Origin: Strigamia acuminata
Taxonomy: Eukaryota
Assembly (NCBI GenBank): GCA_949358305.1
Contig: OX442314.1
Span: 9,114,001-9,178,000 of the forward strand
Length of the DNA: 64,000 nucleotides
Reading direction: 5' to 3'
Shown here piece after piece: positions 2,478 through 64,000 of the stretch; positions within the stretch are counted from its first letter, which is position 1, and every line of letters starts with the position of its first letter. A program made the translations under genes and the position numbers. The notes below the pieces were generated by a model. That model was not told the DNA's origin. It saw only the letters and a list, made by a program, of their open reading frames with translations, and ran no database searches.

Positions 2478-2479
2478 CT

Positions 2480-15792: not shown

Positions 15793-18700
15793 TTAATATT
15801 TAACATTTTTCTTTTTGAAAATAAAATCGTATGTATTTTTTTCAATCGTGATGTAACCCCTTTGTTTCATGAAATCTTCTATTTCCTTTGGTTCGTTGCT
15901 GCTGTAATGTTCAACTGCTAAAACATTGATGTTGACGTTGTGAAAGGGAATTGTCTTCAACACTGGCAACTCAATGCCTTCCACGTCCAGCACGAAGTAA
16001 TCGATAGTCGTTAAATTGGCGGCGACCAACAAAGAATAAACGGGAAAACACTCAACCCGAAACGAAGTGGAAGTTGTTTCGTTTATCAATTTACTATTCA
16101 TTCCGTTTGAACTCAAATTCATCTGTAAAACGCAACAATTTTCAATACCAACACAAATATATTTCATCATGCATTCAAAGTTTCAGTTTTTGCTATTTTT
16201 AGTGTTTCTATAAAACCATCAACAAAAGCTGTAGACTGGTTTTCCAAGTGATTTATGCAACCTGGTGTTGATTTTTAAAACCAAATTCAAAATGGCTCTC
16301 ACAGAAGTAGGATCGGGTCAAACAGCCAAATAGTTCGCCAGGTTTTCGTCTTTGCTTTTGATGTTTATGGAAACACCAAAAAAACCATAGAAACAGAAAC
16401 TTTGGATGCGCCTAAAATTTGATTATAGATGGCGTCGTCATTACTTCTTCTGACCGATTGTGAGGACTTAAGCAAGCCTCCATCAAATAGGATTTACGAT
16501 TTGAAAGCAACAACTTGGAAAAGTGAATAGGATTCGGTTCCACGAGAAGTCCTGTCCAGCCTAGGAATCGTTCCAGATAAATAGTCATTGAAAGTGACTC
16601 CGGGTTAAATGCACCGGCTTCAAAAAATGTCCCATTGCGCTTCTGTTTGATAAAAATAATTAAAATTAAAATTGACAAATTTAAAAAAAAATTACCAAAT
16701 TCCAGCAAAAACTATCATTTTCCAACAAAAATGGCCAAATTGTTGATAAATTTCAGCAAAAATTGACAAATTCTTAATAAATTTAAACAAAAATTGTCAA
16801 ATTCTTGATTAATTTCAACAAAAATTGCCAAATTCTTGATAAATTTAAACAAAAATTGTCAAATTCTTGATTAATTTCAACAAAAATTGCCAAATTCTTG
16901 ATAAATTTCAACAAAAATTGCCAAATTCTTGATTAATTTCAACAAAAATTGCCAAATTCTTGATAAATTTAAACAAAAATTGTCAAATTCTTGATTAATT
17001 TCAACAAAAATTGCCAAATTCTTGATAAATTTCAACAAAAATTGCCAAATTCTTGATAAATTTCAACAAAAATTACCAAATTCTTGATAAATTTCAACAA
17101 AAATTGCCAAATTCTTGATAAATTTCAACAAAAATTGCCAAATTCTTGATAAATTTTAATAAAAATTGCCAATTTCCAAAGAATGACTTATGTAACGTTG
17201 CACGAGCAACTTGTATAAATGAAACACTCTTTAAACTTATTAAAACTACGGATGGAGTCGGATTCGGATCGAAGGTTGTTGTAAACTCAAAGAACGATGT
17301 GGACAAGGTTACATTTGAAAAGACAGTGAAAATTTATTCAAATTTTTAGGTATATAACACAAAAGGATTAAGCTAATCCTTAAATTCCAAGAATACAGAT
17401 CCGGGTCACAAGTGAGCTTTTTTCACTTGCGCCACGGTGTTAAAAGACACAATTAAACTGGTTCACTTTGGAAACCGCCAGTTTCCACAGTCCCCCCGTC
17501 CCGGCAGACTGGGACTTCGGTTTCCACTTCGAGGTTGCATAGTCTCTGGATGGGTCTTCGTAGACGTGTCCCGTTGGACATCTGGATTTCGCAGGAGCGA
17601 ATCAAGCCGTCACGACCCTCCTTCACGGAGGTGATGCGTCCGAGCTTCCACGTAAGTCGCGGCCGGTTTTGGTCCTCGATGATCACGATGTCTCCCACGT
17701 TAAATTTCGTACGACTGGTGACGCCTCGGTGTTGGCGTAATTCGATTAAGTATTCCTTCGTCCAACGGTCCCAAAATCGTTGGATAAGCGTTTGTCGGTA
17801 TTTCCACGCTCTTAAGATGTCATCTTTTGATCCCGGATTGGTGGAATATTTCGGTGCGGTCGGCAGAAATGAAATGCGTTTTCCTAAGAGAAAATGAGAG
17901 GGGGAAAGGGGTAATTCTTCAAGAGGAGTATCATAAACATAGGTTAATGGTCTGGAGTTCACAACAGCTTCAGCTTCTGCGAGTATGGTCACAAGTCCCT
18001 CATAATCAAGTGTGTTCTTCCCAATCGTTTTCTTTAGCGCCAATTTCACGGAACGCACCATGCGCTCCCAAAAACCACCCCACCAAGGTGCAGTCTCAAC
18101 AATATATTTCCATGTAATTTGTTTCTCCGTAATAAATCCTTGAAACTGTTCTTCTGGTAAATATTTCAAAAACAAATTAATTTCCTTGTCAGTCCTTTTA
18201 AACGTTTTGGCGTTATCGGAGTATATAGTTTTGGGAATTCCTCGCCGACAAATAAAACGCTTCACACAGTCAATAAACTTATCGGTACTCAAGTTGGAGA
18301 GCAATTCCAGGTGAACTGCACGCGTCACAGCACATGTAAACAGGGCAATATACACTTTGTTACCCAATTTGGTGTAGAGAGGACCCGCAAAATCGACTCC
18401 ACATATTTTGAACGGTTCACTCGGCATAACACGATCAATGGGTAGCAACCCCCACTTTTCTTTGGCTAAACGTCCTTGTATTTTCCGACAGCAAACACAC
18501 TTGTGGATGATTCCCTTGATTGTTTTTCTCGCACGGGCGATCCAGAATCTCTCTCGAAGTCCACTCAATGTGTCGGCCAGTCCACTGTGTAAAGCTCGTT
18601 CGTGTTCGCCTAAAACAATCAATTTCGTTATAAAATGTTCGTTTGGTAATAAAAAGGGTTCGCGTGTATTGCGGTCAAGTTCGGCAGATCCCCATCGGTG

Positions 18701-21700
18701 TGTGGCTGTCAACAACCCATTGTCGTCTAATATTGGCGCCAACTTCAAAATTGATGATGATTTTTCAATTGGTTTTTGGTCAGTCAAACATCTAATTTCT
18801 CTCTGGAATCCCACTTGTTGTAAGTATTTCAGCCAATATCGTTCGCTCTGCTCGAGTTCCTCGTTTCTCAGCGGTTCTCCATCCCTGTTTTTCGTCTTCA
18901 GATTCGTAATATATCTAAAAACCCAAGCAGTAACTCTTTTTAGTTTTTTCCACGAGCTGAAACGGTTAAAATCAATGTCTGGTGTTGCTATTGCTGTCAG
19001 CGTCACGATCACGTCTTTTTCTTCATCTTCGTCGATTGGAACTGCTTTATCGTCTTCGTTTGGCCATCCGGATTCGTCGTCTGACAGCCATGTCGGTCCT
19101 TTCAGCCAGAATGGTTCCTCGGTGAGCTGCTTCACGTTTACTCCCCTCGTTACCAGGTCGGCCGGATTATCTTTCCCTGGGCAGTGGCGCCAATCGTCTC
19201 TCGATGTATTCTCGACAATTTCTCGTACACGATTGTACACGAATGTCGCTGGTCGGTTCTTGGTGTCGCGGATCCAGTGCAAAACTATCTTGGAATCGGT
19301 CCAAATTGTGAAATCTTCACACCCAAGAGTCGTTTTCAATGTTGGAATCAGTCTTGTTGCCAGTAGTGCGCCCATCAGTTCCAGCTTTGGTAATGTTAGT
19401 TCCTTTACAGGCGCCACTCTACACTTGGAAATGATAAAATCAATATTAACAGCATTTGTTTTGTCCAGAACTCGAGTGTAGGCTACTACGCCATACGCTC
19501 TCGGACTGGCATCACAGAAGATGTGAATCCTTTTCCTACAATTTCCTCCCCAATTTAACAATTTGCGCTCTAAATTTAAATTTTCGAGGTAGGGTATCTG
19601 AACATACCAATTTTCCCATTTTATCTTCACATATTCTGGAATGACGTCATCCCACCCAACATTTAATTTCCAAAGTTCCTGAAAAACAATTTTGGCAGTT
19701 ATCACAAAAGGGTTTGCCATTCCCAACGGGTCAAAAATCATAGCGGTAATCCTTACAATAAATCTTTTGGTGTATTTGGTCAAGTTAATCTCGTTAATCA
19801 ATGCACTAATGTCTAATCCCAATTTATCTAACTCAATATCCCAAACTACCCCCAAAACCTTAGTTTTCTTTTGAAAAACTGTCACGTCACAATCTGGGTC
19901 ATCTCGTATAATTTTCTCTTGTAATTTCACATCATTCGACTTCCATTTGGTTAATTTCATGTTCGCGGCTTGCAAAATCTCACGACTCTCATCATAAATT
20001 TGAATTAACTTGTTCGAATTGTCAATACTTGTTACAAAATCGTCTACATACAAGTCTTCTTTCAGCTTGTCGCATGTGTCCGGGTATTGGTCTTCAAACT
20101 TGTCGACGTGTTCTTTTACTGTTGCATTTAGTAAAAATGGACTGGGTCCTGTCCCAAATGGAACTCGAGTTTGGCGCAATTCAATTAGTTTTACCTACTC
20201 TTCACCGTTCCACCCGTCCTCAATCCAATAAAGTCGTGTGACGTCTCGTTCGTCCGTCTTGAGATGTATTCGATGGAAGGCTTTCTCGATGTCGCCGATT
20301 GCGCCGTATTTGCCGGTTCGGAACTTCAAAACAATGTTTATTAGATGAGGTAACATATTCGGCCCCTTACTCAGACAGTCGTTTAGCGATAAACATCCTT
20401 TTGCGTGCGACGACGCGTCATACACAATTCTTAGCTTTGTTGTGGCTCGAGTTTCGTCAATTACTGGTCGATGAGGGATATAATACGGGTTGTCTGGTTT
20501 CGAGTTCTTCGGAACTTTTTCCAAGATTCCGGAGGCGAGTTGTTCGTCGATCACTTTTTTATAGTCTAAATATAACTTGGGATTTTTTCGAAAACGGTTA
20601 ATTAAACTCCACAAACGCTTTTTTGCAACATCTCGATTGTCGCTCAATTCCTTGCGATCAATCTTCCACGGGAATCCCACTTCGTAATGGTCATCTACCC
20701 ACTCGATCTGCTCTTTGAATCGTTTCAACGTGTCCACTTCATCGATTCCCGGTTCCATAGTCTCGTGGCGAATCCCAATCGATTCCAAGTTCCAGAATTT
20801 TTCTAAAAGTTCATTTGTATTATCGGCAACTAAAATCTTGTTTACCCGCACTAAAGACGACACGGTTGTTTCAGTCTCTCCGGTTGAGCCGTGCAACGTC
20901 CATCCAAATATGGTTTCGATTGCCATGAGATTTTCATCGATGCGTTGCTGTTTTCCCGTTGTAACTCTCCAAAAGTTGTCGACGCCAATTAAGATGGAAA
21001 CGCCGTCGTCCCTGTGAACGCTGTTGTCGTAAGCCAGTTTGATGTTGTATTTCTTCAGTTTTTCCAATACTCGTTCGTCAGGTTTTCCTCGTAATGTCGG
21101 AGTTATCCAGGGCGACTCAAGCGCTTTGATTTCTAAATTGCAATTTCTATTTTCACAGTTATTCAAACTTAACTTCACCTGTTTCCGTTTGGCAATTGTT
21201 GGTTCAGTAGATCCGAAAGTCAAGAGGGCGATTGACTGCTCACCAATCTTCTCTAGTTGCAGTTCTCTCGACAGTTTTTCAGTTATAAAGCTTCTTTGGG
21301 ATCCCCCATCCAAGAAGCATTGGACTCTTCTCTTCTCGTTGCTCCCGTTGGCCTCCAACACGACGACCTGCAGGAACATCACGGTTTCCGTATTTGTTGA
21401 TTCTTGAACGGCCGAAGTCAAAGTTGTTTCTGTCTTCTTGTTGTCTTCCTTATCGCACAAGTACGTGTGATGTTTCTGCTCGCATTTCCTACATTTAAAT
21501 CGGGTATTACATTGACGAGCTTGGTGATTTTCTTTTAGACATCTGTAGCAGCGACGCGCTTTGAAACACGCTTCTTTCCGCTTTTCGACCGTCAATGGAC
21601 AGTCCGGGCTCTTGTGGTCTTCCTTTTCGCAAAATGTGCATTTGTAAACGATGTTGGAAAGGGCTGAAGCGGAACTGTGATTATTAGATTTGTAATTGGT

Positions 21701-23506
21701 TTTCTTCACCTCTTCTTTTTTGGTATTCGGGACTTCCGTCGATTCTTGCTGTGGTTTACTGGTTTTATCGGCGGCTTCCGTACGTTCGCGCATCGCTACT
21801 TCGAATCTAAAAAAGTCCAAAAATTCTTTAACAACCCAAGGCGCATCTCCTCGTGGACGTGCAAAATCATGTTGTATGCTGGTTGGCACAGCACGCGCGA
21901 GAATTGGGCATAACAATGGGCCAAAGGTTTCCGCCGGTACTCCGAGGTTTTCGAGGCTTTTAACATGCAGGTCGCAGAAATCATAGAGTCTCCGTAGGGC
22001 CGCCACATCTTCTACTCGTTTCACGGATGGCATTTCGAGCAGCTTGGCCATGTGCGCACCGACAATTTGTTCCTTGCGACCAAATCGATTTGTGAGGAGA
22101 GAAATGGCAGTGTCGTAATTTAACTCGGTTACAGTCAGTCCGCTGATTGCGTTCGCTGCAAGACCTTCAACTAACGAGCGTAGGTACACAAATTTGGCGG
22201 TTTTGGGCAACGCCGTATTATTGTGCACACTCAACTCAAAATCAGACCAGAAGCCCGTCCAGGTTTCCGGCGTGCCTTTAAACTTGGCGACCTCGAGCTT
22301 CGGCAGTTTCATCACTGCGCATTGTGGTTGGACTGGATTTGGGTTTTGCACAGGTGGAACGAAAAGAGGGTTAACTGGTGGTATATTCACGAGTGGTACT
22401 TGCGGTGGTTGTTGTGGTGGTGTTTGTTTCATTTGCGCGAGTTCTTTCAAGGCGACTTCGAGTGTGATTCGGGCGGCGGTCATCTCGTCTTGTAGTTCTT
22501 CCGCTTCGAATTCGTCTTGGTCCACCTCGTTCACGTCGGTGATCCCGTCGGCGATTATTGTGTCCAGTTTATCGATTTTCAAACGTTTTGTGATTAGTTG
22601 GGCTTGTATGCATAATAATCGTACCTCGTTGAGGGGATCCTCGGCCATTTCTTTTTTCAGTCTTTCAAAAAGCGCACGCACGCTTCCTCTTTGTGTTTCC
22701 CTTTGTGCACGACTTTTTGCCAAATCGTCCATTTTCGCGTTATGGTTCGTTTTCAAAAATGTTTCCCGGGTTTCGGCACCATGTAACGTTGCACGAGCAA
22801 CTTGTATAAATGAAACACTCTTTAAACTTATTAAAACTACGGATGGAGTCGGATTCGGATCGAAGGTTGTTGTAAACTCAAAGAACGATGTGGACAAGGT
22901 TACATTTGAAAAGACAGTGAAAATTTATTCAAATTTTTAGGTATATAACACAAAAGGATTAAGCTAATCCTTAAATTCCAAGAATACAGATCCGGGTCAC
23001 AAGTGAGCTTTTTTCACTTGCGCCACGGTGTTAAAAGACACAATTAAACTGGTTCACTTTGGAAACCGCCAGTTTCCACAACTTACCATTTTGAATATAT
23101 TCTGACATTGCTTGGCCAACTCAAGTGATCTTCCATTCAACACAAATGGATCCATTAAATTATATGGAGAAGTATTAGGTTTAATCAAAACCTCACTTCT
23201 AATATACTGAATTAGCAGTGGGTCCAACTGCTTTCTTCCTGATATATTAAAAAAATCCCATTGTATCTTCCAAACCTTTGAAACCTTTGAAGCAGGAGCT
23301 GAAAACAACCCAAAAAATTTCCAGCAAACAACAACAACACGAATTTTTCTTTCCATACTTATATTTTCGTCGACAATCCAAGAATATAACGCAATGGCAA
23401 CAAGAATAAGAGGTGATGATACTAGCACTATTGTTTTGATTGTTTTGCACACACCTTTTCGCTTTACCTGAGCTAAAAGGTAAGATTGATTATTGTGTTT
23501 TTCCAT
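15793..23506 (-). CDS. Star-like/FkbM methyltransferase-domain gene C' (exons 23506-23359, 23298-23087, 16642-16445, 16122-15793); Bel/Pao element in intron 2
   Basis: In-phase GT/AG exons; TM helix; motifs FFEAGA, LERFLGWTGLLVEPNP, CFPVYSLL, IDYFVLDVEGxE. Confidence 0.88.
16730..17175. repeat. Intronic 31-bp tandem repeat (AAATTCTTGATAAATTTCAACAAAAATTGCC); shorter degenerate version at ~36765-37025
   Basis: Read directly. Confidence 0.92.
17453..22732 (-). pseudogene. Bel/Pao Gag-Pol polyprotein interrupted by one in-frame TAG at 20197-20195
   Basis: KLPKLEV gag motif, three Cys/His knuckles, LDGGS protease, DIEKAF/RVPFG/YVDD RT, FCDAS RNase H, VDFAGP/SDNAKTF/GGFWER integrase. The two track ORFs share one frame. 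Confidence 0.9.
22764..22781 (-). other. Primer binding site (tRNA-Phe) of the Bel/Pao element
   Basis: Minus strand TGGTGCCGAAACCCGGGA directly after the 5' LTR. Confidence 0.9.
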
Positions 23507-23939: not shown

Positions 23940-23941
<2 letters not shown>

Positions 23942-27346: not shown

Positions 27347-28923
27347 AGCATGCTGGTGAAGTATAGACTACCAAAAAGTGAGTAAAAGCAAAATTTTGTT
27401 GAACGAAATCGGCCATAATTCGATAATTGGGTCAAAATGGTGGAATTTTAATCGTAAAATTAAAAAATTAAACTGTAAGCAGAAAGAAAAGCGAAATAAT
27501 CTTGCACACATTCGTAGTTCGCCATGATTTCGTCTTCTGCTTTTGCAGTTTGTAGAAACACCAAATACCATACAAACGGAAACTTTGTGTGCACCTAAAA
27601 GTGATTATAGATGGCGTTGTCATTACTTTTGCTGATTGATTGTTAGGACTAAGACAAGCTTTCATCATGTAGGATTTACGATTCGAACGCAATAACTTGG
27701 TGAATTGAATAGGATTTGGTTCCACAAGAAGCCCCGTCCAGCCTAGGAATCGTTCAAGAAAAATGGTCATTGAATGAGACTCCGGGTCGTATGCACCCGC
27801 TTCAAAAAAAATCCCATTGCGTTTCAATTTGATAAAAACAATTTGAATTAAGTATCAATTCACATTGCAGTTGCAGGTGTGGATCTAAGGGGAGGGCCAT
27901 GGGACCATGGCTGACTCCTTTGATTTATGAGAGTTGCGCCGTTAGTACCTAATCTGCCACCAGAGCGTGTCACAAGCACATCTGGCTCTAACCAGAGGGT
28001 CTCATTGGCCAGTGGGAATGGCTCACAATTGTGATTTTGCATTAATTTTTTTTTTAGTTTTAGTTTTTATTACATGTTTATTTTATTTTCCTAAAAAAAA
28101 AAGAAATGAAATTTCGGATCTTTATTTATTTTTATTTTTGGTTGTAACGCGGTAAAATAGAGCGTGTGATGCGATTCCAACGCCATCTAGTGGTCAAATG
28201 TGAGTCAGCCGACCATTCTTTCTATGAACTGTGGCCATGGCCACCTCCTTGAATAACAAAATTGTCATTTTTGAACAGAAATTTCATTTTTTAGATGAAA
28301 AATTCATTCTTAGGAGGAAAAATTCATTTTTCGGGTGAAAAATTCATTTTTCGGGTGAAAAATTCATTTTTCGAGTGAAAAATCATTTTTCGGGTGAAAA
28401 TTCATTTTTGGTATATTCCAACCAAAATATCAAATTCTTGTTAAATTTCAACTAAAACTTCTAAATTCCTTTTAAATTTCAAATTCAAATTTCAAAGCTT
28501 GAAAAAATCCTAAAGATTTACAAAGATACTTACTGTTTTGAACATTTTCTTACTAAAATTGGCCAATTTAACTGATTCTCTATCCAACACAAATGGATCC
28601 TCCAAATAATAGGGTAATAAATTAGGTTTAATCAAAACCTCACTCCTAATATAAAAAAAAGTTTTTTTTTTCATAAAAAATAATTTTTTTTTTACCTTAA
28701 AAAAAAATTGTTTTTTCTTCCTTAAAAAAAATTGCTTTATATTCATAAAAAATAAATTGATTTCATCTTCATAAAAAAAAAGTTTTTTTTTATAAAAAAA
28801 ATAGTCTTTTTTTTTATTAAAAATAGTCTTTTTTTTATAAAAAATAGTCTTTTTTTATAAAAAATAGTCTTTTTTTTTAGTAGTTTTTTTTTAATAAAAA
28901 ATAGTTTTTCTTTGCTAAAATTT

Positions 28924-32048: not shown

Positions 32049-35000
32049 TTAAAGATATTTAAGATATTTCTTTATGAAGATAAAATCATAAACATTCTTT
32101 TCCAACGTGATGTAGCCCATTGTTTTCATGAAAGCTTCTAGTTCCTCGGGTTTTTTGTTGTTGTAATGTTCTACTGCAAAAACATTGATGTTGACCTTTT
32201 GAAAGGGAATGGTCTTCAACACTGGCAACTCAAATCCTTCAACGTCCAGCACGAAGTAATCGATGTTCGTGAGATTTGCAGCATTCAACAAGGAATACAC
32301 TGGGAAACAGTCAACCAGATACGAACCTGAATATGTAACGTTATTTTCTCCCAATTTACTCTGCATCCCGTTTGATGTCAAAATCATCTGTAAAACACAA
32401 ATCATCGTTATGCGCATTCAAATTTCAGTTTTTTCTGTTTTTAGTGTTTCGGGAAACAGAATGGAGACCGAAAACAGCCATAAACCATCCTCAAAAAATG
32501 CATAAATATACTCCAAACCCATACAACGTGGTCCTAACTCCTATTGGTTGAGCCGGATTACGCCTAACTGTGGACTATGCTCTACTACGCGTGAAAAGTA
32601 GTTCTGTTTATTTTCAATGAATTTCAGTGTAAAAAGTGACTAGAATTGTTTCTACTGTTTACAGAAACACAACAAATTATTTAAAAAGAAACTTTATGTG
32701 GTCCCGATTGCATATTAACAAACTACAGGAGTGACTAATACATCTACCGGAATGATTAACGTAGGAAGGGCAAGTTCTGCTCAAATTGCGCTCACCTCGC
32801 TTTAACTGGGTCAAACAAAGCAAAACAAGCGAAACAAATCAAACTAACACCCAGCACACAGACGATAAATTCAAATTTTCATGGCCGTTCAAACTATTGA
32901 TGCGTTAGTCATTCCTGGCCAGGAAATCAGCACAGGGATTCCTGAAGCGCCTGCTGAAATTTGGCTGGACAATTGGCGATAAGTTTTGTAAGTCCAAGTA
33001 GAGTGCAATTGCATATAAACTATACAGTATGATGTTTGTTATTACTTTTTCTGTTTTATTGTGAGGGCTAAGACAAGCCTGCATCATGTAGGATTTACGA
33101 TTCGAAAGCACCAACGAATAGAATTGAACAGGATGCGGTTCCACGAGAAGTCCTGTCCAGCCTAGATATCGTTCGAGGTAGATGGTCATTGAATGAGACT
33201 CCGGGTGGTATGCACCAGCTTCAAAAAAAATCCCATTTTTTTTCTAATTTGATAAAACAATTTATATAAATTGCAAGAAAAGCTGATAAATCTTTGTTAA
33301 ATTTCAATAAAATCTGAGAAATTATTGATAAATTTAAAATTTTATGAAATTTTAAGAAATATCAAGAAATATCAAGAAACATCAAGAAATTTCAATAAAT
33401 ATCAAGAAATTTCAATAAATATCAAGAAATTTCAATAAATATCAAGAAATTTCATTAAATATCAAGAAATTTCAATAAATATCAAGAAATTTCAATAAAT
33501 ATCAAGAAATTTCAATAAATATCAAGAAATTTCAATAAATATCAAGAAATTTCAATAAATATCAAGAAATTTCAATAAATATCAAGAAATTTCAATAAAT
33601 ATCAAGAAATTTCAATAAATATCAAGAAATTTCAATAAATATCAAGAAATTTCAATAAATATCAAGAAATTTCAATAAATATCAAGAAATTTCAATAAAT
33701 ATCAAGAAATTTCAATAAATATCAAGAAATTTCAATAAATATCAAGAAATTTCAATAAATATCAAGAAATTTCAATAAATATCAAGAAATTTCAATAAAT
33801 ATCAAGAAATTTCAATAAATATCAAGAAATTTCAATAAATATCAAGAAATTTCAATAAATATCAAGAAATTTCAATAAATATCAAGAAATTTCAATAAAT
33901 ATCAAGAAATTTTAATAAATATCAAGAAATTTCAATAAATATCAAGAAATTTCAATAAATATCAAGAAATTTCAATAAATATCAAGAAATTTCAATAAAT
34001 ATCAAGAAATTTCAATAAATATCAAGAAATTTCAATAAATATCAAGAAATTTCAATAAATATCAAGAAATTTCAATAAATATCAAGAAATTTCAATAAAT
34101 ATCAAGAAATTTCAATAAATATCAAGAAATTTCAATAAATATCAAGAAATTTCAATAAATATCAAGAAATTTCAATAAATATCAAGAAATTTCAATAAAT
34201 ATCAAGAAATTTCAATAAATATCAAGAAATTTCAATAAATATCAAGAAATTTCAATAAATATCAAGAAATTTCAATAAATATCAAGAAATTTCAATAAAT
34301 ATCAAGAAATTTCAATAAATATCAAAAAATTTCAATAAATATCAAGAAATTTCAATAAATATCAAGAAATTTCAATAAATATCAAGAAATTTCAATAAAT
34401 ATCAAGAAATTTCAATAAATATCAAGAAATTTCAATAAATATCAAGAAATTTCAATAAATATCAAGAAATTTCAATAAATATCAAGAAATTTCAATAAAT
34501 ATCAAGAAATTTCAATAAATGTTCAGTAATCTAAAGAAATAACAAATATATGAGAAGAAATACTAGTATTACTAAATATTGAGAAATATTGAGAAATATC
34601 AAGATATATTGAGAAATATCAAGAAATATTGAGAAATATTGAGAAATATCAACAAATATTTAGAAATATTGAGAAATATTGAGAAATATCAACAAATATT
34701 TAGAAATATCAAGAAATATTAATAAATATTGAGAAGTAAGAAATATTAATAAATATTGAAAAATTTCAATAAAAATAGACATTTTTGATAGATGTCAACA
34801 AGAATTGGCAAATTCCAAATAATGACTTACAGTTTTGAAAATTCTTGAACTCAAATTGGCTAACGCAACCGATCCTGGATCCGAAACAAATGGATCCTCT
34901 AATTTATATGGATAGGAATTAGGTTTAATCAAAACCTCACTTCTAATGTATTCAATCAGCAATGGGTCTAGCTGCTCTCTTCCAGCCATATCAAAATCAT

Positions 35001-50600: not shown

Positions 50601-52086
50601 TGCTTGGCTAAAGCTGCGTTGCTGTTTTCTTCCGCATTTTGCTTGTCGGCTTCGATTTCCTGGTTTTATAAAGTACAAAATGTGGAGTAAGTAACGATTT
50701 CGGTATACATTTTAGTATTAACATGTAAGCTTAAATCACATTGAAATGAGTGGAATGAGATCTGAATCTAAATGAAATCTAAATCTGAATAAAATATGAA
50801 TCTGATTTAGGTCTAAATCAGTAAATATCAAGTCTGAATCAGTAAAAATCAAACCTGAATCAGTGAAAACAGGACTGAATCAGTAAAAATCAGGTCTAAA
50901 TCAGTAAAAGTCAAGTCTGAATCAGTAAAAGTCAGGTCTGAATCAGCAAAAACCATGTCTAAATCAGCATTGATTCAGTTAAGTCAGCTTGAAATCAGCA
51001 TTAATTCGGTTATATCAGCATTAATTCAACGAAATCAGTTCTAAATCAGCATTAATTCAACGAAATCAGCTCTGAATCAGCATTAATTCAGTTAAATCAG
51101 CTCTAAATCAGCATTAATTCAGTTAAATCAGCTCTAAATCAGCATTAATTAAGTTAAATTAGCTCTAAATTCGCATTAATTCAGTTAAATCAGCTCTAAA
51201 TCAGCATTAATTCAGTTAAATCAGCTCTAAATCAGCATTAATTCAGTTAAATCAGCTCTAAATCAGCATTAATTCAGTTAAATCAGCTCTAAATCAGCAT
51301 TAATTCAGTTAAATATCAGTTCTAAATCAGCACTAATTCAGTTAAATCAGCTCTAAATCAGCATTAATTCAGTTAAATAAGCTCTAAATCAGCATTAACT
51401 CAGCAAAATCGGCTCAAAGAAATCCGCGCAAACAATAATTAAATCAGCACAAATAATAAAATCAGCTCAAAATCAGCTATCAATTTGTTCTAAATCAGTA
51501 AAACCAGGTACAGGAACCTCTCGATGTGCATCGTTTTATTCTCCACGCTTGCATCGCTTGGTTTGCGTAGTTTCGATGCTTCGAAACTTGAATAGAGGCT
51601 TTTCCATTGCGCAGATTCAATTTACATGCTCATTCCGTGCAAATCGAGAGACAAACTATTTGCAATAAAATACACATATATACCAAATAGCGTTGTTGCA
51701 ATTCCTTATTTCTCTGCCGTATTTTTTCCATCTTACTATCCAAATACGCTTCCTTCGCCTCCCGATTATCCTATTTAAAACAAACAAACAAACAAACAAA
51801 CAAACCGATAAATAAATAAATCCAAATTTTAACTACTTAATTATTAATCCAAAATTTCAAAAAATATAAATATTTATTTATTCCATGCTGTGTTAGTAAA
51901 TACTCACATTATATTAAATTGCAGCACAAAACAGAAGAAAAAAAAGGAAAAAAAGAAGGAAAAAAAGTGCCATCAGATACGAAGTGCAATTTTCTTTCCA
52001 TTTTTATAATATTTCTCTATTTTTTTTTAGTTAAATACTGTATATTTAACCTCTATTGATATACTTACATCAGTCACTTCGGCCAT
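47605..52086 (-). CDS. CCDC9: CCDC9-like protein (multi-exon; RGG-rich, with an acidic 24-nt-repeat C-terminus)
   Basis: Exons encode EAKEAYLDSKMEKIRQRNKELQQRYL-EIEADK, PPPDPSYNFL, YGGQDFSNVK and MTGHERTQYEEWK...GEWRREWD, as I recall from CCDC9/DUF4594. The last exon ~49331-47605 carries EAEAEV repeats. Confidence 0.8.
49409..49857. repeat. Intronic 20-bp tandem repeat (GACCAAAAATTCATTTTTTT)
   Basis: Read directly. Confidence 0.95.
50755..51410. repeat. Intronic 21-bp then 31-bp tandem repeats (TCAGTTAAATCAGCTCTAAATCAGCATTAAT)
   Basis: Read directly. Confidence 0.9.
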
Positions 52087-52996: not shown

Positions 52997-55900
52997 ATGG
53001 AAAGCTGCAATCAATTAGTGAATTCGACGTCCAGTGAAGATCTTCACAGCTCAAATTTGTCGACTGAGGAAATCCGCGTAAAAAATCGAATTCGAAAGAA
53101 ATCGAGCAACAGAAACGGAGTCCACGGCGTCATAGACAAAAAGATTTTTATTAAATTCCAAAAACTCACACGCACGCTGAAAGTAAACGATAAAACATCG
53201 TTGCAAACTCGTATTTACCGTCACACGTTTAATATTTTGCAGGAAACGCGGTCGAATCTGTTAAATATGGACCAAATGCTCGTGAAATTTCGAGAACAAG
53301 CGAAAATGGTGTCAAATTTGTCGATTTTTGATTGGAAATTTCGATTTTAATTTGTGTAATTTTCATAATTGCAGGCCGAGTCGGTTAATTTCACCGGAAC
53401 ACGGCCGCGTGGACGGCGGACGGCTTCGGTGCCGCCTCCGTTGAGAATTTCGAATTGTCAGTTGTGCGGCGGAGACAGTTCGCAACAGCCTCGGTGTCAG
53501 TCGGTGGATAATTTTGAATCTGTGAATTTGATAAAAGCTGCGAAAATACCTCAATTGGTTAATATTTATTTAATTCAGTTGTAAATAATTTTTTTTTAGT
53601 TTTTAAATTTATTTTTATTATTTTTATTTATTTAGTCTAGTCGTCATTCTCAGTCAATGCAAGATCTCCGAGCCGCGCCGCCTTCTCCTTTGTGTGTTTC
53701 AAAGGAAACGCCATCTTTTACACCGTACCCTAAAATGTAAAATTAATTTCGGAGACCAATTGATAGTTTTCTTCCCTTTATTGCGAAATTAACTTTATTA
53801 GACCATAAAATTCATTTTTTAAGCGCTTAGTTGCACATTGACGTCTGTTTTAAAAGAAAAATGGGCAAAAAATATTCTGAAATACACTCAAACGTTATTT
53901 TACTACACGGATAGTACAAATAATGCGTTTTTAGACAAAATAATCTCCCTTTTACGTGAAAAAATGCATTTTTATGGCACATGAATGTCAATTTTACACG
54001 AAAAAATGCAAGAAATGTTGATTTTACGATTTTAAATGCACTTTAGTGTTATTTTTTTCACAAAAAAAGTGTAAAAACGATATTTTTGCTTCGATTTCAA
54101 CATAAAAATGTGCAGAAAGTCCATTTTCTTAAGTAAAATGGGCAAGAACTCCATTTGAACAAGAAGAAGTGCAAAAAAACGCCTTATTTATCTCGAATTC
54201 TACTCAAAAATCTACAAAATTGTCATATTTATGCCAAAAACTGCAAAATTTGTCATATTGATTTCAAAAAATGCAAAATTTGTCATATTTATGCCAAAAA
54301 ATGCAAAATTTGTCATTTTTATGCCAAACTGTGCAGAATTATTCATATTTATGTCGTAAAATGCCTGAAATTGTTATATTTATGCTAAAAAATGCCTAAA
54401 ATTGTCATGTTTATGCCAAAAAATGCTTAAAATTGTCATATTTATGCCAAAAAATGCCTATAATTGTCATTTTTATGCCTAAAATTTGTTATTTTTATAC
54501 GTAAAATTGTCATTTTTGTACGTAAAATTGTCATTTCTATACCTCAGTCACCCCATCATTTTACTATTTAAAAAAAAAAGTCTAACATTATAAAATAACA
54601 ATTTCAGGGAAGAGTCAACTGGCGATGCATTAAACTCTGCTAGAGGATCCGAAATATCCGTAACAAAAACCGAAATGAGAAAAAAACAATAATAAAACAA
54701 TTGAAAAAAAATCTTTCAAAGTTGGCGAGCGCAACCGTCGAAGAAATGCGATCCGACATCATCAGTTTGAAGAACCAGCTACAGAAACTAGAACTGTCGG
54801 GACAGATCCACACACAGGTTCGAATTTCCCGCCTTAAATCAAACGAAATGGAACTAATAAAAACGAAATCAAACGATTGCAGCAAAGTTTACTGTACCAG
54901 CAAGTGGAGATGAAAGACCGCGTCATATCCGACATGACGCAACATCTGCAGGATTTGTCGAGCAAGTTGGAGATGAGCGAAGAACAACGGTGTCAGCTGC
55001 TGTTGAAGTTGGAGGACACGCTGCGGACGTCGCTCGACGTGGGCTCCGAGGCGGAGAAATTCGCCGCCGAGGTGAAGCGCGTGGAGGAAATGGCGGCCGA
55101 AGTGCAGGCGGATAAGGATCGGTTGCGGAGACGGGCGAGGAAGATCGTTTTGGAGTAAGTTTGGTGGATTTTTTGGTGGATTTTTGGTTGATTTTTGTTT
55201 GTTTTTGTTTAGGTTGAAGGAGAAGTGCAAGCAGTATTTGTCGGAGACGCAGCGGTTGAAGGATAGGGAGTGGGAGTTGGAGCAGAAGTGTTCGCAGGCT
55301 TCGCAGGAGAATAATGCATTGACGAGGCAGGTGACTGGGTTGCAAGAAAGGCTGCAGGAATCGATTGTGGAGATGCAGAATTTTAAGGTTTGGGATGAGA
55401 AGATGGTGTTTTGAAACGGTTTAAGGATGGGATAATGTTTTTAAATGTTTTAAGACGAAGGAAAAAATTTTAGAAGGGTTTTGAGACGAGAGAAAAAATT
55501 TTAGAACGGTTTTAAGACGAAAGAAAAAATTTTAAAACGGGTTTAAGATGAAAGAAAAAATTTTATAATGGTTTTAAGACGAAAATAAAATTTTAAAACG
55601 GTTTTAAGACGAAACAAAAAATTTTAAAACGGTTTTAAGACAAAACAAAAAATTTTAAAACCGTTTTAAGACGAAACAAAAAATTTTAAAACGGTTTTAA
55701 GACGAAAGAAAAATTTTAAAACGGTTTTTACACGAAAGAAAAAATTTTAAAACGGTTTTAAGACGAAACAAAAAATTTTAAAACGGGTTTAAGACGAAAG
55801 AAAAATTTTAAAACGGTTTTTACACGAAAGAAAAAATTTTAAAACGGTTATAAGATGGAAAAAAAAATGAAAATGGTTTTATGATGAAAAAAGTATTTTC

Positions 55901-58900
55901 AAATGGTTTTTTAGATTACAGAATTATTATAAAATAATTTTTTTTGGATTTGAAAAACGGTAGAATGAAAAATAAATGCTAAAACCATTTTTAAAACGAA
56001 AATAAACATCGTAAAACATTTTTAAACGAAAACAATCTAGAAAAACCTTTTTAACAGAAAAATGAATGTCGTAAAACAGTTTTAAAACGGAAAAATTTGT
56101 ATAAATCACTTGTAAAATGTAAAAATTACTGTATATAGCTTATTTTTTGCAGATAAAAGCGGACGATATTCAGCAAACTTCTCAGCGAAAAGACGTTGAA
56201 CTGATTGAATTGAGAGCCGTGCATCAAGAAGTGCAGAAAACAGTACAAAATCACAAAGATGTCAACCATAAAGTACCGAAAATATGAAAAAAAAATTAAA
56301 AAAAAAATTGTTTATTAAAATTTTTTTTTTTATTAAGCTCGTGAACAACAACGAAGTTTTGAAGAACAAAGTGGAATGTTTACAAAACGAAAAAAACCAC
56401 CTCGACATGAAATTAGTAGCGATGGAAAAGGAATTGCTTTTGTCTCTCCAACGACTTGAGGAACTAAAAGTAAGAAAAATTCTAAAATTAAAAAAAAGAA
56501 GCAATTTACTGTATTTTAGTATTTTAGTTGCCCTCGTTTTGTAGCCGCACTTCAGAGAGGCGGTTTGAAATAAGAGCCGCCCTCAAATAATAGCCGCGGC
56601 TACTATTCGAGGGCTTTTGTAACCAAACAGGAAACGGTTAATGATGATAGTTATTTAGATAGAAAATTTTTAAAAAAAAGTGAAATTTTAATGGAAAAAA
56701 TTTAAATTTCACTGAAAAATACGGAGTAACATTTTAATGAAAAAAGTGAAATTTTAATCAAAAAAGTAAAATTTTTATTTAAAAAATGAAATTTCAATGG
56801 AAAAAAGTGAAATTTTAATCAAAAAAGTGAAATTTTAATAAAAAAAGTGAAATTTTAATAAAAAAAAAAGTGAAATTTTAATCAAAAAAGTGAAATTTTA
56901 ATCAAAAAAGTGAAATTTTAATAAAAAAAAAAGTGAAATTTTAATCAAAAAAAGTGAAATTTTAATCAAAAAAGTGAAATTTTAATCAAAAAAAGTGAAA
57001 TTTTAATCAAAAAAGTGAAATTTTAATAAAAAAAAGTGAAATTTTAATCAAAAAGTGAAATTTTAATATAAAAAAAAGGGAAATTTTAATCAAAATAGTG
57101 AAATTTTAATCAAAAAGTGAAATTTTAATCAAAAAAGTGAAATTTTAATCAAAAAAGTGAAATTTTAATCAAAAAAGTGAAATTTTAATAAAAAAAAAGT
57201 GAAATTTTAATCAAAAAAGGGAAATTTTAATCAAAAAGTGAAATTTTAACCAAAAAAGTGAAATTTCAATGGAAATAAGTGAATTTTCAATGGAAATAAG
57301 TGAATTTTCAATGGAAATAAGTGAATTTTCAATGGAAATAAGTGAATTTTCAATGGAAATAAGTGAATTTTCAATGGAAATAAGTGAATTTTCAATGGAA
57401 ATAAGTGAATTTTCAATGGAAATAATTGAAATTTGAATGGAAAAAAGTGAAATTTTAATGAAAGAAGTGAAATTCCAATCAAAAAATGGTAAACAATTGT
57501 AATAAGAGCCGCCCTCGATTAAGAGTGCCCGTTTTGAATAAGAGCAGTGGCTTTTATTTGGGTAAAATAAAATATGGTAATTTAAAAAAAAATGATTTAT
57601 GTAAAATCAAATTATTTTGATTTCAGATGGAAGTAAAGGGACTGCGAGCATCGAACACCGATTACCAAGCGCAGTTGTTATCCGAGTCGAACTTGCGACA
57701 AACGGTCGAACGCGCCGGTCAAGAAATGGCTGAAAAAGTGAACACGCTTGACAATCAATTATCGTCATTACAAAATAAATATTTAGACGTTATTAATGAA
57801 CACAGTAAAGTTAATGACAATTTACGGTGCGAGAACATGAGTTCGCGGGTGAGAAATGGGAAATGCCAAATTGCAAAAAAAATATGAATTTTCTAGGAAA
57901 TAATTCGAATATTTCAGCAAGACGAGGAACAGCGACACCAGGAGGCGTTGAAGTCGCTGCAGTTGCATTACGAATCGCTTTTAAGTGCCATCAAAGTGGA
58001 ACTTAACGATAATCAAAGCAAAATTCAGTCGCTGCAGCAGAGTTTGACGAAGGAGCAGGAGATTAAGGCGCAGCTGAGGAAGGAGTTGACCGAGTAAATG
58101 AGTTGATGTTGGTTCTTTTGGTTTTTATTCGCTTTTTGGGTTTGTTTTGCAGGTGCGAGCAGGAACAGACGAAGCATAAGCAGTTGGTTAAATGTTATAA
58201 TGTGAAGAAGAAAAAATTAGTAGAAAAAAACCAAAAGTAAATTGGTGTTGTTTTGTTTGTGAATAATTAGAAAAATTTCGTAATGAAATGGTGAATTTAA
58301 CGGTTTGGTAAATTTGATTAAATTCTCGTTTTGTTGTGAAATTTTTTTTTTAATGATTTCGTGTTTTCTAATGGGTTTTTGTATTTTATAAGGATTTTTT
58401 TCGTGAGTTTCGTGTTTGTTTTGGTTAAATTTGTAATGAATTTCGTGTTTTATTATGAAATTTTGTCATGAATTTTGTGTTTTATGTTGAATTTTCATGA
58501 ATTTTGTTTTATAATGAATTTTGTAATGAATTTCGTGTTTTATTACGAAATTTAGTAATGAATTTCGTGTTTTATTACGAAATTTAGTAATGAATTTCGT
58601 GTTTTATGATGAATTATCATGAAATTTGTGTTTTATAATGAATTATCATGAAATTTGTTTATAATGAATTTTTTCATGAATTTTGTATTTTACAACAAAT
58701 TATTTCATGAATTTCGTGTTTTATAATGAATTTTCTCAAGAATTTCATGTGTTATAACAAATTTTCTCATGAATTTCGTATTTTATAAAAAAAATTCTCA
58801 TGAATTTCGTATTTTCCAAAAAATTTTCTCAGAATTTCGTATTTTCTAAAAAAATTCTCATGAATTTCGTATTTTCTAAAAACATTTCTCCTAAATTTCG

Positions 58901-60659
58901 TATTTTATAAAAAAAATTCTCATGAATTTCGTGTTATAAGCATTTTGTTGGTAATAACTTCATATTCTCAGCCTTTTTTTGCTAATTTTATCTTTTCTCT
59001 CTAAATTAGGGTTAAAATACTGCACGAGAATTTCCTCGACTTACAAGACATGTTCAAAGCTATGGAAGAGAACTTCAAAGAAATCCTATACCTCATCTAC
59101 GTCGACGTAGAAACAACCGTCTCCATGCTGGCATCCGGATCTGTCGCTCCACCCCCAACATCAGTAAACAAAAACAAAACAATAATTTAAAATTTTAAAA
59201 ATTTGTCAATTTCTATTCAAAGTCGATCGACATGAAACAACCGAAACAATTTCTATCACGTGACTGGCTATCGGGCATCAAAGTAGCAAAAACAAATCCA
59301 AAATGAAACGTTTTAAATTAATATTAAATAATTTTGATAGTCACAACTACGATGGATCCAAGATGAAGTCGGACGTGCGGCGCCATCTGCAACCACAACC
59401 AAGCACCACACGGTGTCGGTTGACAGCGTGCACACGCACGTGCCTCTCCAATCGCCGAAAGTTGATTTGCGCATGACCTCGCCCCGAAAAAACTCGCCGC
59501 CCATCTATTTGATAGAGAAATCCGAACGTGGTCTGCAAGAATCGGGCGACGGCAACTCGACGCAGATCAACAACGATGAGTCGCGCAGTAATGGCGGCCC
59601 GCTCAACAGCACGGAAATACCCGAGTCGCAGAAATCGAATTGGGAAAACACGCAAACGGAGATTTTAAAACGATATCAGAGGTCGGTAAATGGAAGAATA
59701 ATTCGTTTACATTAATTTAACGTCCAGAAAATTTCTTTAATATCAAGAAATTTTATTGAAAATCAAGAAATTTCATTGAAATTCAAGAAAATTTATTGAA
59801 AATCAAGAAATTTCATTTGAAATTTAAGAAAATTTATTTGAAATATATGAAAATTCATTGAAATTTATGAAAATTTATTGAAATTTAAGAAAATTCATTG
59901 AAATTTAAGAAAATTCATTAATATTTAAGAAAATTCATTGAAATTTAAGAAAATTCATTGAAATTCAACAAAAATTTATCAAAATTCAAGAAAAATTCAT
60001 TGCAATCCAAGAAAAATTTATTAAAATTCAACAAAAATTCATTGAAATTCAACAAAAATTCATTGAAATTCAACAAAAATTCATTAAAATTCAACAAAAA
60101 TTCATTGAAATTCAACAAAAATTTATTATAATTCAACAAAAATTCATTGAAATTCAACCAAAATTTATTGAAATTCAACCAAATTCATTGAAATTCAACA
60201 AAAATTCATTGAAATTCAACAAAAATTCATTGAAATTCGAGAAAATAATTGAAAGTAAAAATAATTCACTAAAATTAATTTAAACCAAGAGAATAAAATT
60301 TTTCTTATTTTTTTTTATATTCAGATTTCAACAAATATTCGACAACATCAACGCGGATTTCAGCAAATCGAACATCCATTTTGAGGCTGAACAGAACAAC
60401 GAGGCGACCAAGGTGTCGGTTGTTCATCTTTAACGATAATGAGTATCGAGGAACGTGATTGTTTGTATTAAAATTGGGTTTTTAGGTGGCACCAACTTCG
60501 GGAGGTCTGCTGTCGTCCTCTTTGAGTTCCATCTCGGAATTTTCGTGCGACGCGGCCGCCGAGGACATCACACCGGAAGTAGCAAATAATGTTTTTAAAA
60601 ATGCCGATCAACTAGCGGTAGTGGGGACTTTGCCAGTTAATTCACCATCTTGTGACTGA
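52997..60659 (+). CDS. Multi-exon coiled-coil protein of unknown family
   Basis: Series of GC-richer AG/GT-bounded exons (e.g. ~54883-55154, 55213-55387, 57628-57848, 59340-59680, 60486-60659) encoding E/K/Q/L heptad-rich peptides. The exact model is uncertain. Confidence 0.7.
54215..54540. repeat. Intronic ~30-bp tandem repeat
   Basis: ATGCAAAATTTGTCATATTTATGCCAAAAA-like units. Confidence 0.85.
55440..55860. repeat. Intronic ~31-bp tandem repeat
   Basis: AAAATTTTAAAACGGTTTTAAGACGAAACAA-like units. Confidence 0.9.
56680..57480. repeat. Intronic 20/21-bp tandem repeats, bracketed by MITE-like ends (~56507-57579)
   Basis: ATCAAAAAAGTGAAATTTTA units, then GGAAATAAGTGAATTTTCAAT units; AATAAGAGCCGCCCTC motifs on both sides. 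Confidence 0.9.
58395..58940. repeat. Intronic degenerate ~31-32-bp tandem repeat
   Basis: TGAATTTCGTGTTTTAT...-containing units. Confidence 0.8.
59730..60240. repeat. Intronic 21-bp tandem repeat (TGAAATTCAACAAAAATTCAT)
   Basis: Read directly. Confidence 0.9.
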
Positions 60660-61634
60660 TGTTTTAATATTTTTATATGGAAAATTATTGGGGTCTTGAA
60701 ATTTATTTTTTTTTACAAAATGCACTTTTTATACAAATTGTTTATTTATTTATTTATGTATTTTTATTAACGGAAATGGTTGCACTTTTTTTTTTACAAG
60801 TTAAAAAATTGTATGCCAAATTCTAAATTGTATATAGTCTAAAAAGAATAAATGAAAGATGACCTCAGTAGTACATTGGTTGATTATTTAAGTTTTGACT
60901 GCATTTTTAAATGGAAAAATGACAATTTTAGATGGAAAATTGCATTTCTGGACAAAAACATCCATTTTTTAGAGGGAAAAATGGGTATTTAGATACCAAA
61001 AATGCAATTGTGGACAGAAAAATGCATATTTAAATCGATTACACGCTTCAAATAACACGAAAACGTATTTTATTGAATTGACAGGAAATTACATCATTTG
61101 AATTCTCCGACTTTGTCTTTCTACATTCCAGTTTTTAGATCAGAAACATGGACGAAAAGAACAATTAATGATAATTAATGAACATTTTATTGATTTCTAA
61201 AGATTTTCAACACTTTTATTTTCGTTTAAAAAACAAAATAGACATTATTTCGTTTGTAAACCGCGCGCCATTTTAATATCCACTACCAGCAAGTGGCGGC
61301 ATCTAGCACCAAATTTCCAAAACATTCCTCCGCCATTTTAACATTAGGTAAGGAAATAAATCATTCCCAAACCCCTAATTCACTTCAGTTTACAGTTTAT
61401 AATCTGTATTTACGAGCCAAGCCGGAAATGGTTTCATTATTTTTAATCAGAACATTACAAGTTACATTAATAGCCTTAAGAAATGATGATATAGTGAACT
61501 ATAAAATATTTCATGTGGTCAAAGTTTGTTGTCTACACAAGAGACAAATGACTAAATTGCATACAGGCATTGTACATATAAATTATAAGAATATAAAGTG
61601 TCAATTTATTGGTCAGGGAAAAGAAAAAACAAAC

Positions 61635-64000
61635 TCAAACCACTGACAGGTCAGTTTGGACTTGAAGTTCACTCGAAAAGTCTTCGACTTGTTCCCTTTG
61701 GGGCAGTTTTCTTTTGATTTTAATGACATTATTTGCATTTGTGATTCTTTTGACGCCTTGAATTGTTTTCTCGCACAGTTTGTTCAATTTCTTCACTTTT
61801 TCGCACTTGTCGGACATCTTAAATGCTTTGTTCTGGTTCGAAATGATGTTTTGCTCGCTCGGCGGCGGATTCGACGAATTCAGATCCTCGGTTGAGTGTT
61901 TGGGCGGAGATTCTTCGACTTCGGATGTATTTCTCTGTCTTTTCAACATGAGGTCCGAGCCCTGCTTGATCTTGAATTTTTTTGGATATGTTGGATCCGT
62001 CAGAGTCGATGGGTAAAACTGATTTGCTGGAATAAATAAATAAATTAATAAATACAGTATTGGTTGGAATTACAGGCTTGTCCAAGACCAACTCACCTTG
62101 ATTTGGTGTTGATGGCAGAAGGTATAAATACGAAAGAGATGATGCTAAAAATGGGTGACATATTGCAACTGAAGGCGTCAACCTATCACCTGTGAGTAAA
62201 AAATATATTTTTATTTATTTTTATACTTTTTTTGGTTCTAAAAATCAATTTTTGGTTCTAGAAATTAATTTTTGGTTCTAAAAGTCAATTTTTGGGTCTA
62301 AAAATCAATTTTTGATTCTAAAAATCAATTGTTGGATCTAAAAATCGATTTTCGGTTCTAAAAATCAATTTTTGGTTCTAAAAATCAATTTTTGGTTCTA
62401 AAAATCAATTTTTAATTCTAAAAATCAATTTTTCGTTCTAAGAATTAATTTTTGGTTCTAAAAATCAATTTTTGGGTCTAAAAGTCCATTTTTGGGTCTA
62501 AAAGTCAATTTTTGGGTCTAAAAGTCAATTTTTGGTTCTCAAAATCAATTTTTGGTTCTAAAAATCAATTTTGTGGTTCTAAAAATCAACTTTGTGGTTC
62601 TAAAAATCAACTTTGTGTTTCTAAAAATCAATTTTGTGGTCTAAAAATTAATTTTTGGTTCTGAAAATCAATTTGTGGTTGATCTCATAAATTTATTTTT
62701 ATCATTGGATCCACCCTTGTTTTTTAAAACTAATACTATCAAGTTAGGTCTGCTTCAGTAGCCATATTGACCTTAAGGTTTACAATTAACCTACTTATAT
62801 AATCCAAAATGATGCTAGGGTGTCAGAATAAGTATCTGTAGATTACTTGACCTAATTAATAATTTCAATCTTTTCAGAAAAAAAAATATATAATTGCATT
62901 TTAAGTGATTTTAAGAAGAAATTGCCGATAATTTCTGATAATACCAATAATCTACTGATTCATTACTGATAATCTGGACAAATACAAGTGTCAACTAATG
63001 ATGCAAATGCTGCAAATGACAACATAAAATAACACTTACCAGGTGAAAGTGTCAACAAACAAGATAAAAAATCAACAAATTTCCAATCCCAGCATCTTCC
63101 AAGTGCTTGATTTAAACTTTGCATAATTTCTTAAAAAAAAAAATTAAAATCAAATTAAATTAAAAAAAATCAAACAAATCAAATTACCACTTTTATTCCA
63201 AGGAATCCCTATGAATTGAGTAAACAATGTACTGAATTCTCCTTTGCTAAACTCCTGTGGCAAAGGTCCCAAAATTGAAGTGATCTGTAGGCAATAAAGG
63301 CAGATTACTTCCACTTTCCAATCAATTTAATCATTCCCCACCCCTCCCCCCAAGAAAAAAAATCTTCAATTTACTTTAGTGAGAACTTCATTTTTATTTC
63401 TTCCAAGAAACAAGGGCTGTCCTGAGTAGAGCTCAGCTATGATACAACCCAATGACCAAACATCCACTTGCAATCCAAAAGAGAGTCCCAGCAGAACCTT
63501 TGCAATTGGCAACCGGAAAAAAAAGTGAATTAACAAATTTGCTATTTACACACAAAAGGAGTTTGTTTTTCCTGTTTCATTCTATTTATGAACCACTTAA
63601 TCCAATCAATGTTCAAAATCAGTAAATGGGGGTCTGAAAAAAAGCTTTTTCGACACCCGAGGATTGGAAATTTCTCTCTCGGGTTCTCTCAAGTGTGAGA
63701 TCTTATGTAAACATTTCAATCCACACTTGAAACTTTTCTCTTAGCAAATTAAAAATATGAGGGCAAAATGTGTTTTTCTGCTCATAATGCAGAAATTACA
63801 TCAAATTTGAATGTTGAGTGGGGAAAATTAAAATTGTTTTTGCTTTAGTTTGTTATCTTTTTGTGTAGGGTTGATAGTCACCTCTGGAGCTCTGTAGATG
63901 AGGGTTTGCAGTTCATAATCACAGTAGTATAAAGACAGTTCTTCGTGGACACAACGGATTGCATTTCCGAAATCGACAACCCGGAGTGAGGATGAATCTT
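61635..64000 (-). CDS. 3' part of a CMGC Ser/Thr kinase (HIPK/DYRK-like); 5' end lies beyond the right edge
   Basis: Exons encode LRVVDFGNA...LQTLIYRAPE (64000-63882), VLLG...VDVWSLGCIIAELYSGQPLF (~63498-63376), ITSILGPLP and DRLTPSVAICHPFL (~62189-62097), followed by a C-terminal exon ending at 61635. Confidence 0.88.
62230..62680. repeat. Intronic 20-bp tandem repeat (AAAATCAATTTTTGGTTCTA)
   Basis: Read directly. Confidence 0.93.

Follow-up and report, generated by a model that had tools for sequence, protein, structure and literature searches.

Long tandem arrays in a 64-kb stretch of DNA from the centipede Strigamia acuminata (hereafter the window, from which all counts below are drawn) lie almost entirely in introns and are built from units of 20, 21, 30 or 31 bp (i.e., two or three turns of the DNA helix). 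This pattern of helical-multiple intronic units is real and exceeds chance. We propose, with a probability that we put at roughly 55%, that the arrays are fast-evolving intronic variable number tandem repeats (VNTRs) whose units span two or three helical turns, and that A/T tracts lying ~10 bp apart formed the lattice on which slippage or microhomology-mediated duplication gave rise to them.

Long intronic arrays have units of two or three helical turns

Repeat loci were defined by merging Tandem Repeats Finder rows with a score of at least 50, and a non-coding locus was classed as long when it spanned at least 100 bp. Seventeen of the 18 long non-coding loci are intronic and have a period of 20, 21, 30 or 31 bp; the 18th (28650-28920) is non-intronic, with a fuzzy period of 21-24 bp. 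By hand count, ~10 of 25 short non-coding loci fit a multiple of 10 bp (10n), the rest having periods of 4, 5, 17, 18, 19 or 22-24 bp. Coding repeats at 47836-48333 (6, 24, 30 and 51 bp) are codon multiples and were excluded from the array count. Removal of segmental duplicates left 11 loci with 13 units, and all 13 units are 20, 21, 30 or 31 bp long. About one possible period in four is a helical multiple; under a uniform null, which is an assumption, the probability of obtaining such units is 1-3e-7 for the 11 loci, 2-3e-4 when these are collapsed to six families and 3-4e-3 for four families.

A first-pass annotation of the window had placed arrays with units of 10, 20, 21, 30, 31 or 32 bp, all of them helical multiples, at 12 named coordinates in four types of host gene. 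Arrays are present at all 12 coordinates, and the four host types are indeed found: FkbM-domain genes, which we take to be Star-like (six tandem copies, S0-S5, on the minus strand of 1-42600), CCDC9, a coiled-coil gene and a protein kinase gene. The claim about unit length holds for the 13 non-redundant units and fails at 50755, where the unit is 17 bp (2.9 copies); furthermore, 10-bp units are confined to sub-repeats and the edges of type-A arrays, and 32 bp is seen only as a minority variant.

The same annotation had called for a comparison of intronic with intergenic DNA. Within the window, all 11 non-redundant loci are intronic (p = 2.3e-4, over 32001-64000 with one RNase H copy dropped and hand-built gene models), in a test that compared 6040 bp of non-array intron with 6893 bp of unassigned DNA. 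Each of the five introns of the coiled-coil gene that exceed 600 bp contains an array, and its other 12 introns measure 58-78 nt. Arrays occupy 39-95% of their host introns. Without the array, 39-151 bp would be left in 6 of the 11 introns, so the arrays grew within ordinary short introns.

Units carry A/T tracts at helical spacing in two builds

As had been proposed, A/T tracts recur about every 10 bp within the units (arrays are lettered as in Table 1). Against base shuffles, AA/TT/AT power at the harmonic nearest 10.4 bp was higher for 6 of the 13 units (combined p = 5e-8), and against shuffles that keep homopolymer runs it was higher for 4 of them (combined p = 3e-4); the units are not independent in either case. 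Sliding 10-bp power has its maxima on the arrays. Two builds underlie this phasing. Units of A, B, E2, F, G and J are made of direct 10-11 bp sub-repeats, with a self-identity of 0.43-0.80 at a lag of 10-11 bp. Units of C, D, K and H1 alternate A-tracts with T-tracts and have an identity of 0-0.2 at a lag of 10 bp, so that their smallest direct repeat is 20 bp.

The suggestion that phased tracts bend the DNA applies to part of the set. For B, D, F and H1, 4 of the 13 units, a wedge model predicted more curvature than in base shuffles at p < 0.05; its predictions for A, G, H2 and J were at or below the null, and the combined p was 2e-4 against base shuffles and 0.04 against run shuffles. Hairpin propensity was rejected as a common cause: only 3 of 10 arrays (A, C and K) fold better than all 200 shuffles, while G is borderline and 6 of 10 do no better than shuffles.

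The periodicity of A/T tracts was also found, in weak form, in the background. With arrays masked, the ratio of on-phase to off-phase tracts is 1.42 in introns, 1.34 in unassigned (intergenic or untranslated) DNA and 1.14 in exons, against 1.01 for the null (p = 0.002 each for introns and unassigned DNA).

Unit length turns over in place while helical phase is kept

The arrays had been described as unrelated, which is an overstatement. Three pairs are segmental duplicates (12687/33337, 16723/36761 and 28279/41713), and types A, B and C all lie in intron 1 of paralogous genes. Furthermore, at p < 0.05 (~4 expected), 19 of the 78 unit pairs resemble each other more than base shuffles do, and 8 of the 78 more than run shuffles do, a signal of relatedness to which convergence on AT-rich cores may contribute.

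Introns with type-A and type-C arrays retain decayed type-B 31-mers near their splice sites. In S3 intron 1, the local period runs through 31, 10 and 20 bp from the acceptor side, with 10, 20 and 30 bp on the donor side. Different unit lengths have thus succeeded each other in one intron while the helical phase was kept.

The FkbM-domain cluster arose by duplication of a three-gene block, with 98-99.6% identity between copies. The flanks of the duplicated arrays are 99.6% (A/B block) and 98.8% (C block) identical, and their copy numbers are about two-fold apart (101 versus 53 perfect units for A, 14.6 versus 8.7 for B and 6.5 versus 14.6 for C). In the most homogeneous arrays, where identity at a lag of one unit is 100% (A), 99% (H2) and 96% (D), units are already 20 or 21 bp long.

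Two gypsy insertions share one unit phase of array A

Array A is interrupted by a complete Ty3-type gypsy element with TG...CA ends to its long terminal repeats (LTRs), a primer site that we take to match tRNA-Phe, and gag followed by protease, reverse transcriptase, RNase H and integrase. Its 4-bp target duplication falls within a type-A unit. Another member of this gypsy family, in inverted orientation, is represented by an LTR that adjoins the array at an identical unit position, at a distance of 284 bp. Both gypsy insertions in the window (2 of 2) therefore share one unit phase, for which the chance in the second is 1 in 20; given a symmetric integration site, the same unit position is the same target. 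An assembly artefact was ruled out for the inverted LTR, as it differs at 35 of 1059 sites and a contig of run X1, possibly the source sample, contains its junction. A third open reading frame of the complete element (10152-10943, +) encodes ~260 residues with no Pfam match and is not obviously env-like.

The arrays had been suggested as a landing site for an AT-hook gypsy. In the pol frame (4681-9807), RNase H and integrase are separated by an unusually long linker of 382 residues that contains RGRP[RK] three times and GRPK once, presumably as AT-hook cores; a Pfam profile search of pol called no AT-hook. In relatives this linker is at most 200 residues long (median 106; 60 measurable among the best 120 of 512 matches). 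An AT-hook-like motif occurs in 32 of the best 120 of 512 relatives, near the end of pol in 30 of the 32, and could be a nuclear localisation signal. Among LTR 3' flanks taken from contigs of three runs from two studies, we recovered the inverted junction and one flank in which 27 of 30 positions are A/T and which carries a word common to A and B units; the further flanks seen, besides 11 loose ends, are mixed and are not type-A array. A further run, X4, contributed no coverage. Sequencing depth of the array relative to that of the LTR differs several-fold between runs X2 and X3; such ratios are no measure of copy number and were disregarded. A search of metagenome contigs with the LTR-end pattern gave no matches. 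What stands of the landing-site idea is the pair of insertions in one array at one phase, against which the motif is common among relatives and other flanks differ. It is plausible that the family prefers phased AT-rich DNA; exclusive targeting of the array is not supported.

Gene content and other features of the window

The features are collected in Table 1; boundaries of the kinase, Star-like and RNase H genes are approximate. After the FkbM-domain cluster, towards higher coordinates, lie two inverted RNase H copies and CCDC9 (-), followed by the coiled-coil gene (+) and the kinase gene (-), of which the window includes the 3' part. The RNase H copies form an inverted duplication (43592-46371) that is 94.7% identical, with a short common central region. 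In CCDC9, a 62-residue exon (49902-50087, -) agrees fully (100% identity) with its counterpart in Strigamia maritima and shares 63% identity with a millipede protein (3 matches among 8 candidates), the middle exon has many residue differences from the S. maritima protein, and the exon junctions agree with that protein. The last CCDC9 exon (47608-49332, -) encodes a long acidic E/A/K/V repeat that is missing from the 270-residue S. maritima model. The hand-built model of the coiled-coil gene has 17 GT-AG introns (one acceptor shifted by 5 bases) and no internal stop. Array H is flanked by a palindrome resembling a miniature inverted-repeat transposable element (MITE) and a direct repeat (56509-56625 and 57500-57575).

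Within the FkbM-domain cluster, several intron 1 acceptors differ among the Star-like copies, and exon 1 of S2 is truncated at 28653. A young BEL/Pao element lies 14 bp from array B in S1; its 5-bp target duplication recreates the donor, so S1 may still splice despite the insertion. Intron 2 of S2 and S5 contains a ~2-kb insertion edged by short TAACC runs (25310, 27180, 40035 and 40617), which we take to be of the TTAGG telomere type. An insertion at 25594-26874 in S2 intron 2, bounded by terminal inverted repeats and containing a palindrome, is missing from the duplicate S5 and is likely a DNA transposon or MITE. An Rfam search gave no matches.

Table 1 Arrays, mobile elements and host genes in the window
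Feature	Coordinates	Strand	Remarks
LTR of second, inverted element of the gypsy family	1..1060	-	1024 of 1059 aligned sites identical (about 96-97%)
Type-A array	1061..1344		20 bp, 14 perfect units; between two gypsy LTRs, S0 intron 1
Ty3-type gypsy element	1345..12686	+	both LTRs 1133 bp and identical; gag and pol frames open; 4-bp target duplication
Type-A array	12687..14735		remainder of S0 intron 1; 20-bp units, 10-bp units at donor-side edge
Type-B array	16723..17176		31 bp; Star-like S1 intron 1
BEL/Pao element	17190..23080	-	identical 300-bp LTRs; inserted at S1 intron 1 donor site
Type-C array	28279..28482		20 bp, with decayed B-like 30/31-mers; truncated Star-like S2 intron 1
Fuzzy A-tract/T-tract repeat	28650..28920		21-24 bp; at the break truncating S2 exon 1; sole long non-intronic array
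S3 intron 1 arrays	33266..34773		decayed 31-mers, then 10-mers, then type-A 20-mers
Type-B array	36706..37029		31 bp; S4 intron 1
Type-C array	41713..42004		20 bp; S5 intron 1
CCDC9 gene, host of arrays D and E	47608..51770	-	by homology; first exon farther up, unfixed
Array D	49406..49859		20 bp; CCDC9 intron 49333-49900
Arrays E	50754..51478		17 bp (3 copies), 21 bp (E1, at 50811), 31 bp (E2, at 51014); CCDC9 intron 50660-51683
Coiled-coil gene, host of arrays F-J	52997..60660	+	hand-built model, 18 exons, 893 codons
Array F	54205..54544		30/31 bp (unit measured from 54216), followed by 21 bp; coiled-coil intron 53737-54607; a degenerate 30/31 period continues upstream as far as ~53930
Array G	55447..56096		31 bp; coiled-coil intron 55388-56152
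Arrays H1 and H2	56664..57486		20 bp (H1, unit measured from 56734) and 21 bp (H2, from 57268); coiled-coil intron 56470-57626
Array I	58377..58935		31 bp (29-32 variants); coiled-coil intron 58237-59009
Array J	59743..60245		21/20 bp; coiled-coil intron 59682-60324
Decayed periodic stretch	60880..61040		20/21/41-periodic; outside introns, beyond the 3' ends of a convergent gene pair
Protein kinase gene, 3' part, host of array K	61638..64000	-	approximate model
Array K	62229..62680		20 bp; kinase intron ~62191-62793

Relation to known periodic and repetitive DNA

The genome of S. maritima is said to contain structures like periodic An/Tn clusters (PATCs), with PATC60 covering 5.1% of the genome (3.3% of non-repetitive DNA and 24.2% of soft-masked DNA, against 0.22% of scrambled sequence; Table S4, PMC4947018). 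Corresponding shares are 9.8% in Caenorhabditis elegans, 4.7-10.4% across Caenorhabditis, 6.5% in Culex and below 4% in most of the other animals compared (PMC4947018). The PATC resemblance of S. maritima at the genome level is thus already known. Like C. elegans PATCs, the Strigamia repeats place A/T clusters every ~10 bp across hundreds of bases, mostly in introns (PMC4947018); unlike them, their signal lies in near-perfect VNTRs with discrete 20-, 21-, 30- and 31-bp units. The label PATC-like, given in the first-pass annotation, is therefore apt for their form and for what is published on S. maritima, but the background 10-bp periodicity is not specific to introns. We judged phasing by our own statistics rather than by the algorithm of Fire et al.

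C. elegans PATCs are reported to derive from a 35-bp Helitron minisatellite, with parallels in oysters (bioRxiv 10.64898/2026.08.08.743475; the main text does not name Strigamia). In both cases intronic minisatellites carry the 10-bp periodicity and turnover is continuing. However, the 35-bp Helitron unit drifts to a 10-bp phase with age, whereas the youngest Strigamia arrays are already helical and fall into many unit families. Holocentric nematode satellites likewise form many dispersed arrays with units below 50 bp and species-specific peaks, but those peaks (12, 16, 34-35, 39, 54/62 and 65 bp) are not helical multiples (Subirana and Messeguer 2013, PMC3634726). Drosophila introns contain a dense 31-bp class (PMC3152781). 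Finally, microhomology-mediated tandem duplication occurs between short direct repeats, is mostly neutral and is depleted from coding DNA (PMC13167724); it supplies the birth step of our proposal, to which we add the helical-period constraint.

Our literature search, which mostly did not reach subscription journals, found no dissection of Strigamia repeats, no treatment of PATCs in the genus beyond PMC4947018 and nothing on minisatellites tied to helical turns; on AT-hook or gypsy targeting, no title or opening of an abstract dealt with the present case. What this analysis adds is the anatomy of the repeats, a succession of units within a single intron that preserves their phase, the pair of gypsy insertions, and the absence, so far as we could see, of a Helitron source.

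Origin of the arrays

In the origin that we favour, short A/T tracts on a 10-bp lattice would create microhomology at 10n lags, and duplication or slippage between them would seed a unit of two or three turns. Where tracts are directly repeated, the unit would consist of two or three diverged 10-mers (A, B, E2, F, G and J); where A-tracts and T-tracts alternate, the smallest direct repeat would be 20-21 bp (C, D, K and H1). Older arrays may seed newer ones and so pass on their phase, unequal exchange would expand arrays and alter their length, and introns would tolerate the growth. A mean period of 10.0-10.5 bp would suit a lattice set by nucleosome-wrapped DNA. A chromatin-protecting role of the arrays is possible and is not needed for this origin.

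Several observations weigh against our proposal. Background microhomology at 10n lags is enriched only 1.2-1.6-fold, with exons alike at 1.4, which is insufficient alone to yield helical units in 13 of 13 cases and makes the seed the weak step; because exons score alike, we dropped this lag test as specific support. Decayed arrays (such as 53930-54205 and 60880-61040) add to the masked background periodicity. The background lattice is equally strong outside introns, yet long arrays are almost confined to introns, so an extra cause is needed (i.e., transcription-linked expansion or selection). Finally, the counts come from a single 64-kb window, the introns are predicted from homology (CCDC9), Pfam matches and open GT-AG models, and a homologue search with one exon of the coiled-coil gene found none.

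Selection offers another account, in which the arrays are functional PATC analogues that protect germline genes from silencing or nucleosome packing, as in C. elegans. Retention of helical phase while array sequence turns over would fit such a role, as would the strong intron bias, a window rich in LTR elements and the published PATC60 share of S. maritima, which falls within the Caenorhabditis range (PMC4947018). However, predicted curvature exceeds shuffles in just the 4 units named above, array lengths vary two-fold between near-identical duplicates, and arrays occur alike in genes with an exon CpG observed/expected ratio of 0.70-0.75 (kinase and Star-like) and of 1.35-1.5 (the others), a crude proxy that shows no link to germline methylation. 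We therefore consider selected function possible, at well under even odds. A bolder version, in which locally born minisatellites hold their helical phase as sequence is replaced and form an independent PATC-like chromatin-protecting system, and in which a gypsy family whose AT-hooks have shifted beside its integrase reads the phased DNA to insert at a fixed unit position, strikes us as a long shot.

Descent from Helitron/Helentron or MITE minisatellites that inserted in introns and were later remodelled to a 10-bp phase has precedent in C. elegans and oysters (bioRxiv 10.64898/2026.08.08.743475). Unit cores are alike beyond chance by base shuffle, and the H intron, alone among the 11, shows a small palindrome together with a direct repeat of at least 12 bp on either side of its array. 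Only 8 of 78 unit pairs survive the run-preserving shuffle, though, and different arrays have no common flanks within the window. None of the 11 array introns contains a Helitron-type hairpin and CTRR end (which old copies could have lost), and 6 of the 11 leave little room for an element. Furthermore, the youngest, near-perfect arrays already have units of 20, 21 or 31 bp, compared with the 35-bp unit reported for young C. elegans copies (bioRxiv 10.64898/2026.08.08.743475). These observations make mobile-element descent improbable. Chance, in the sense that AT-rich repeats of assorted periods were picked over for those that fit, is largely refuted and very improbable: although most short non-coding repeats do not fit 10n and duplicates inflate the count, 17 of 18 long loci fit with none dropped, p remains at or below 4e-3 even when loci are collapsed to four families, and a genome-level signal is in print (PMC4947018).

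Implications for periodic introns

PATC-like DNA has been noted outside nematodes, and as far as our literature search shows, its anatomy in centipedes is dissected here for the first time. If the window is typical, Strigamia gains 10-bp periodic introns by a route unlike that of C. elegans, through many local repeats that are born in phase rather than by the reshaping of one transposon repeat. Such a contrast would let one ask, in a natural setting, whether selection maintains periodic introns as a code or whether they result from the turnover of repeats on DNA wrapped in nucleosomes; the series of paralogous introns and the pair of gypsy insertions could serve at once as test cases. If the arrays are neutral, they would be a neat example of helical-period bias in minisatellite birth.

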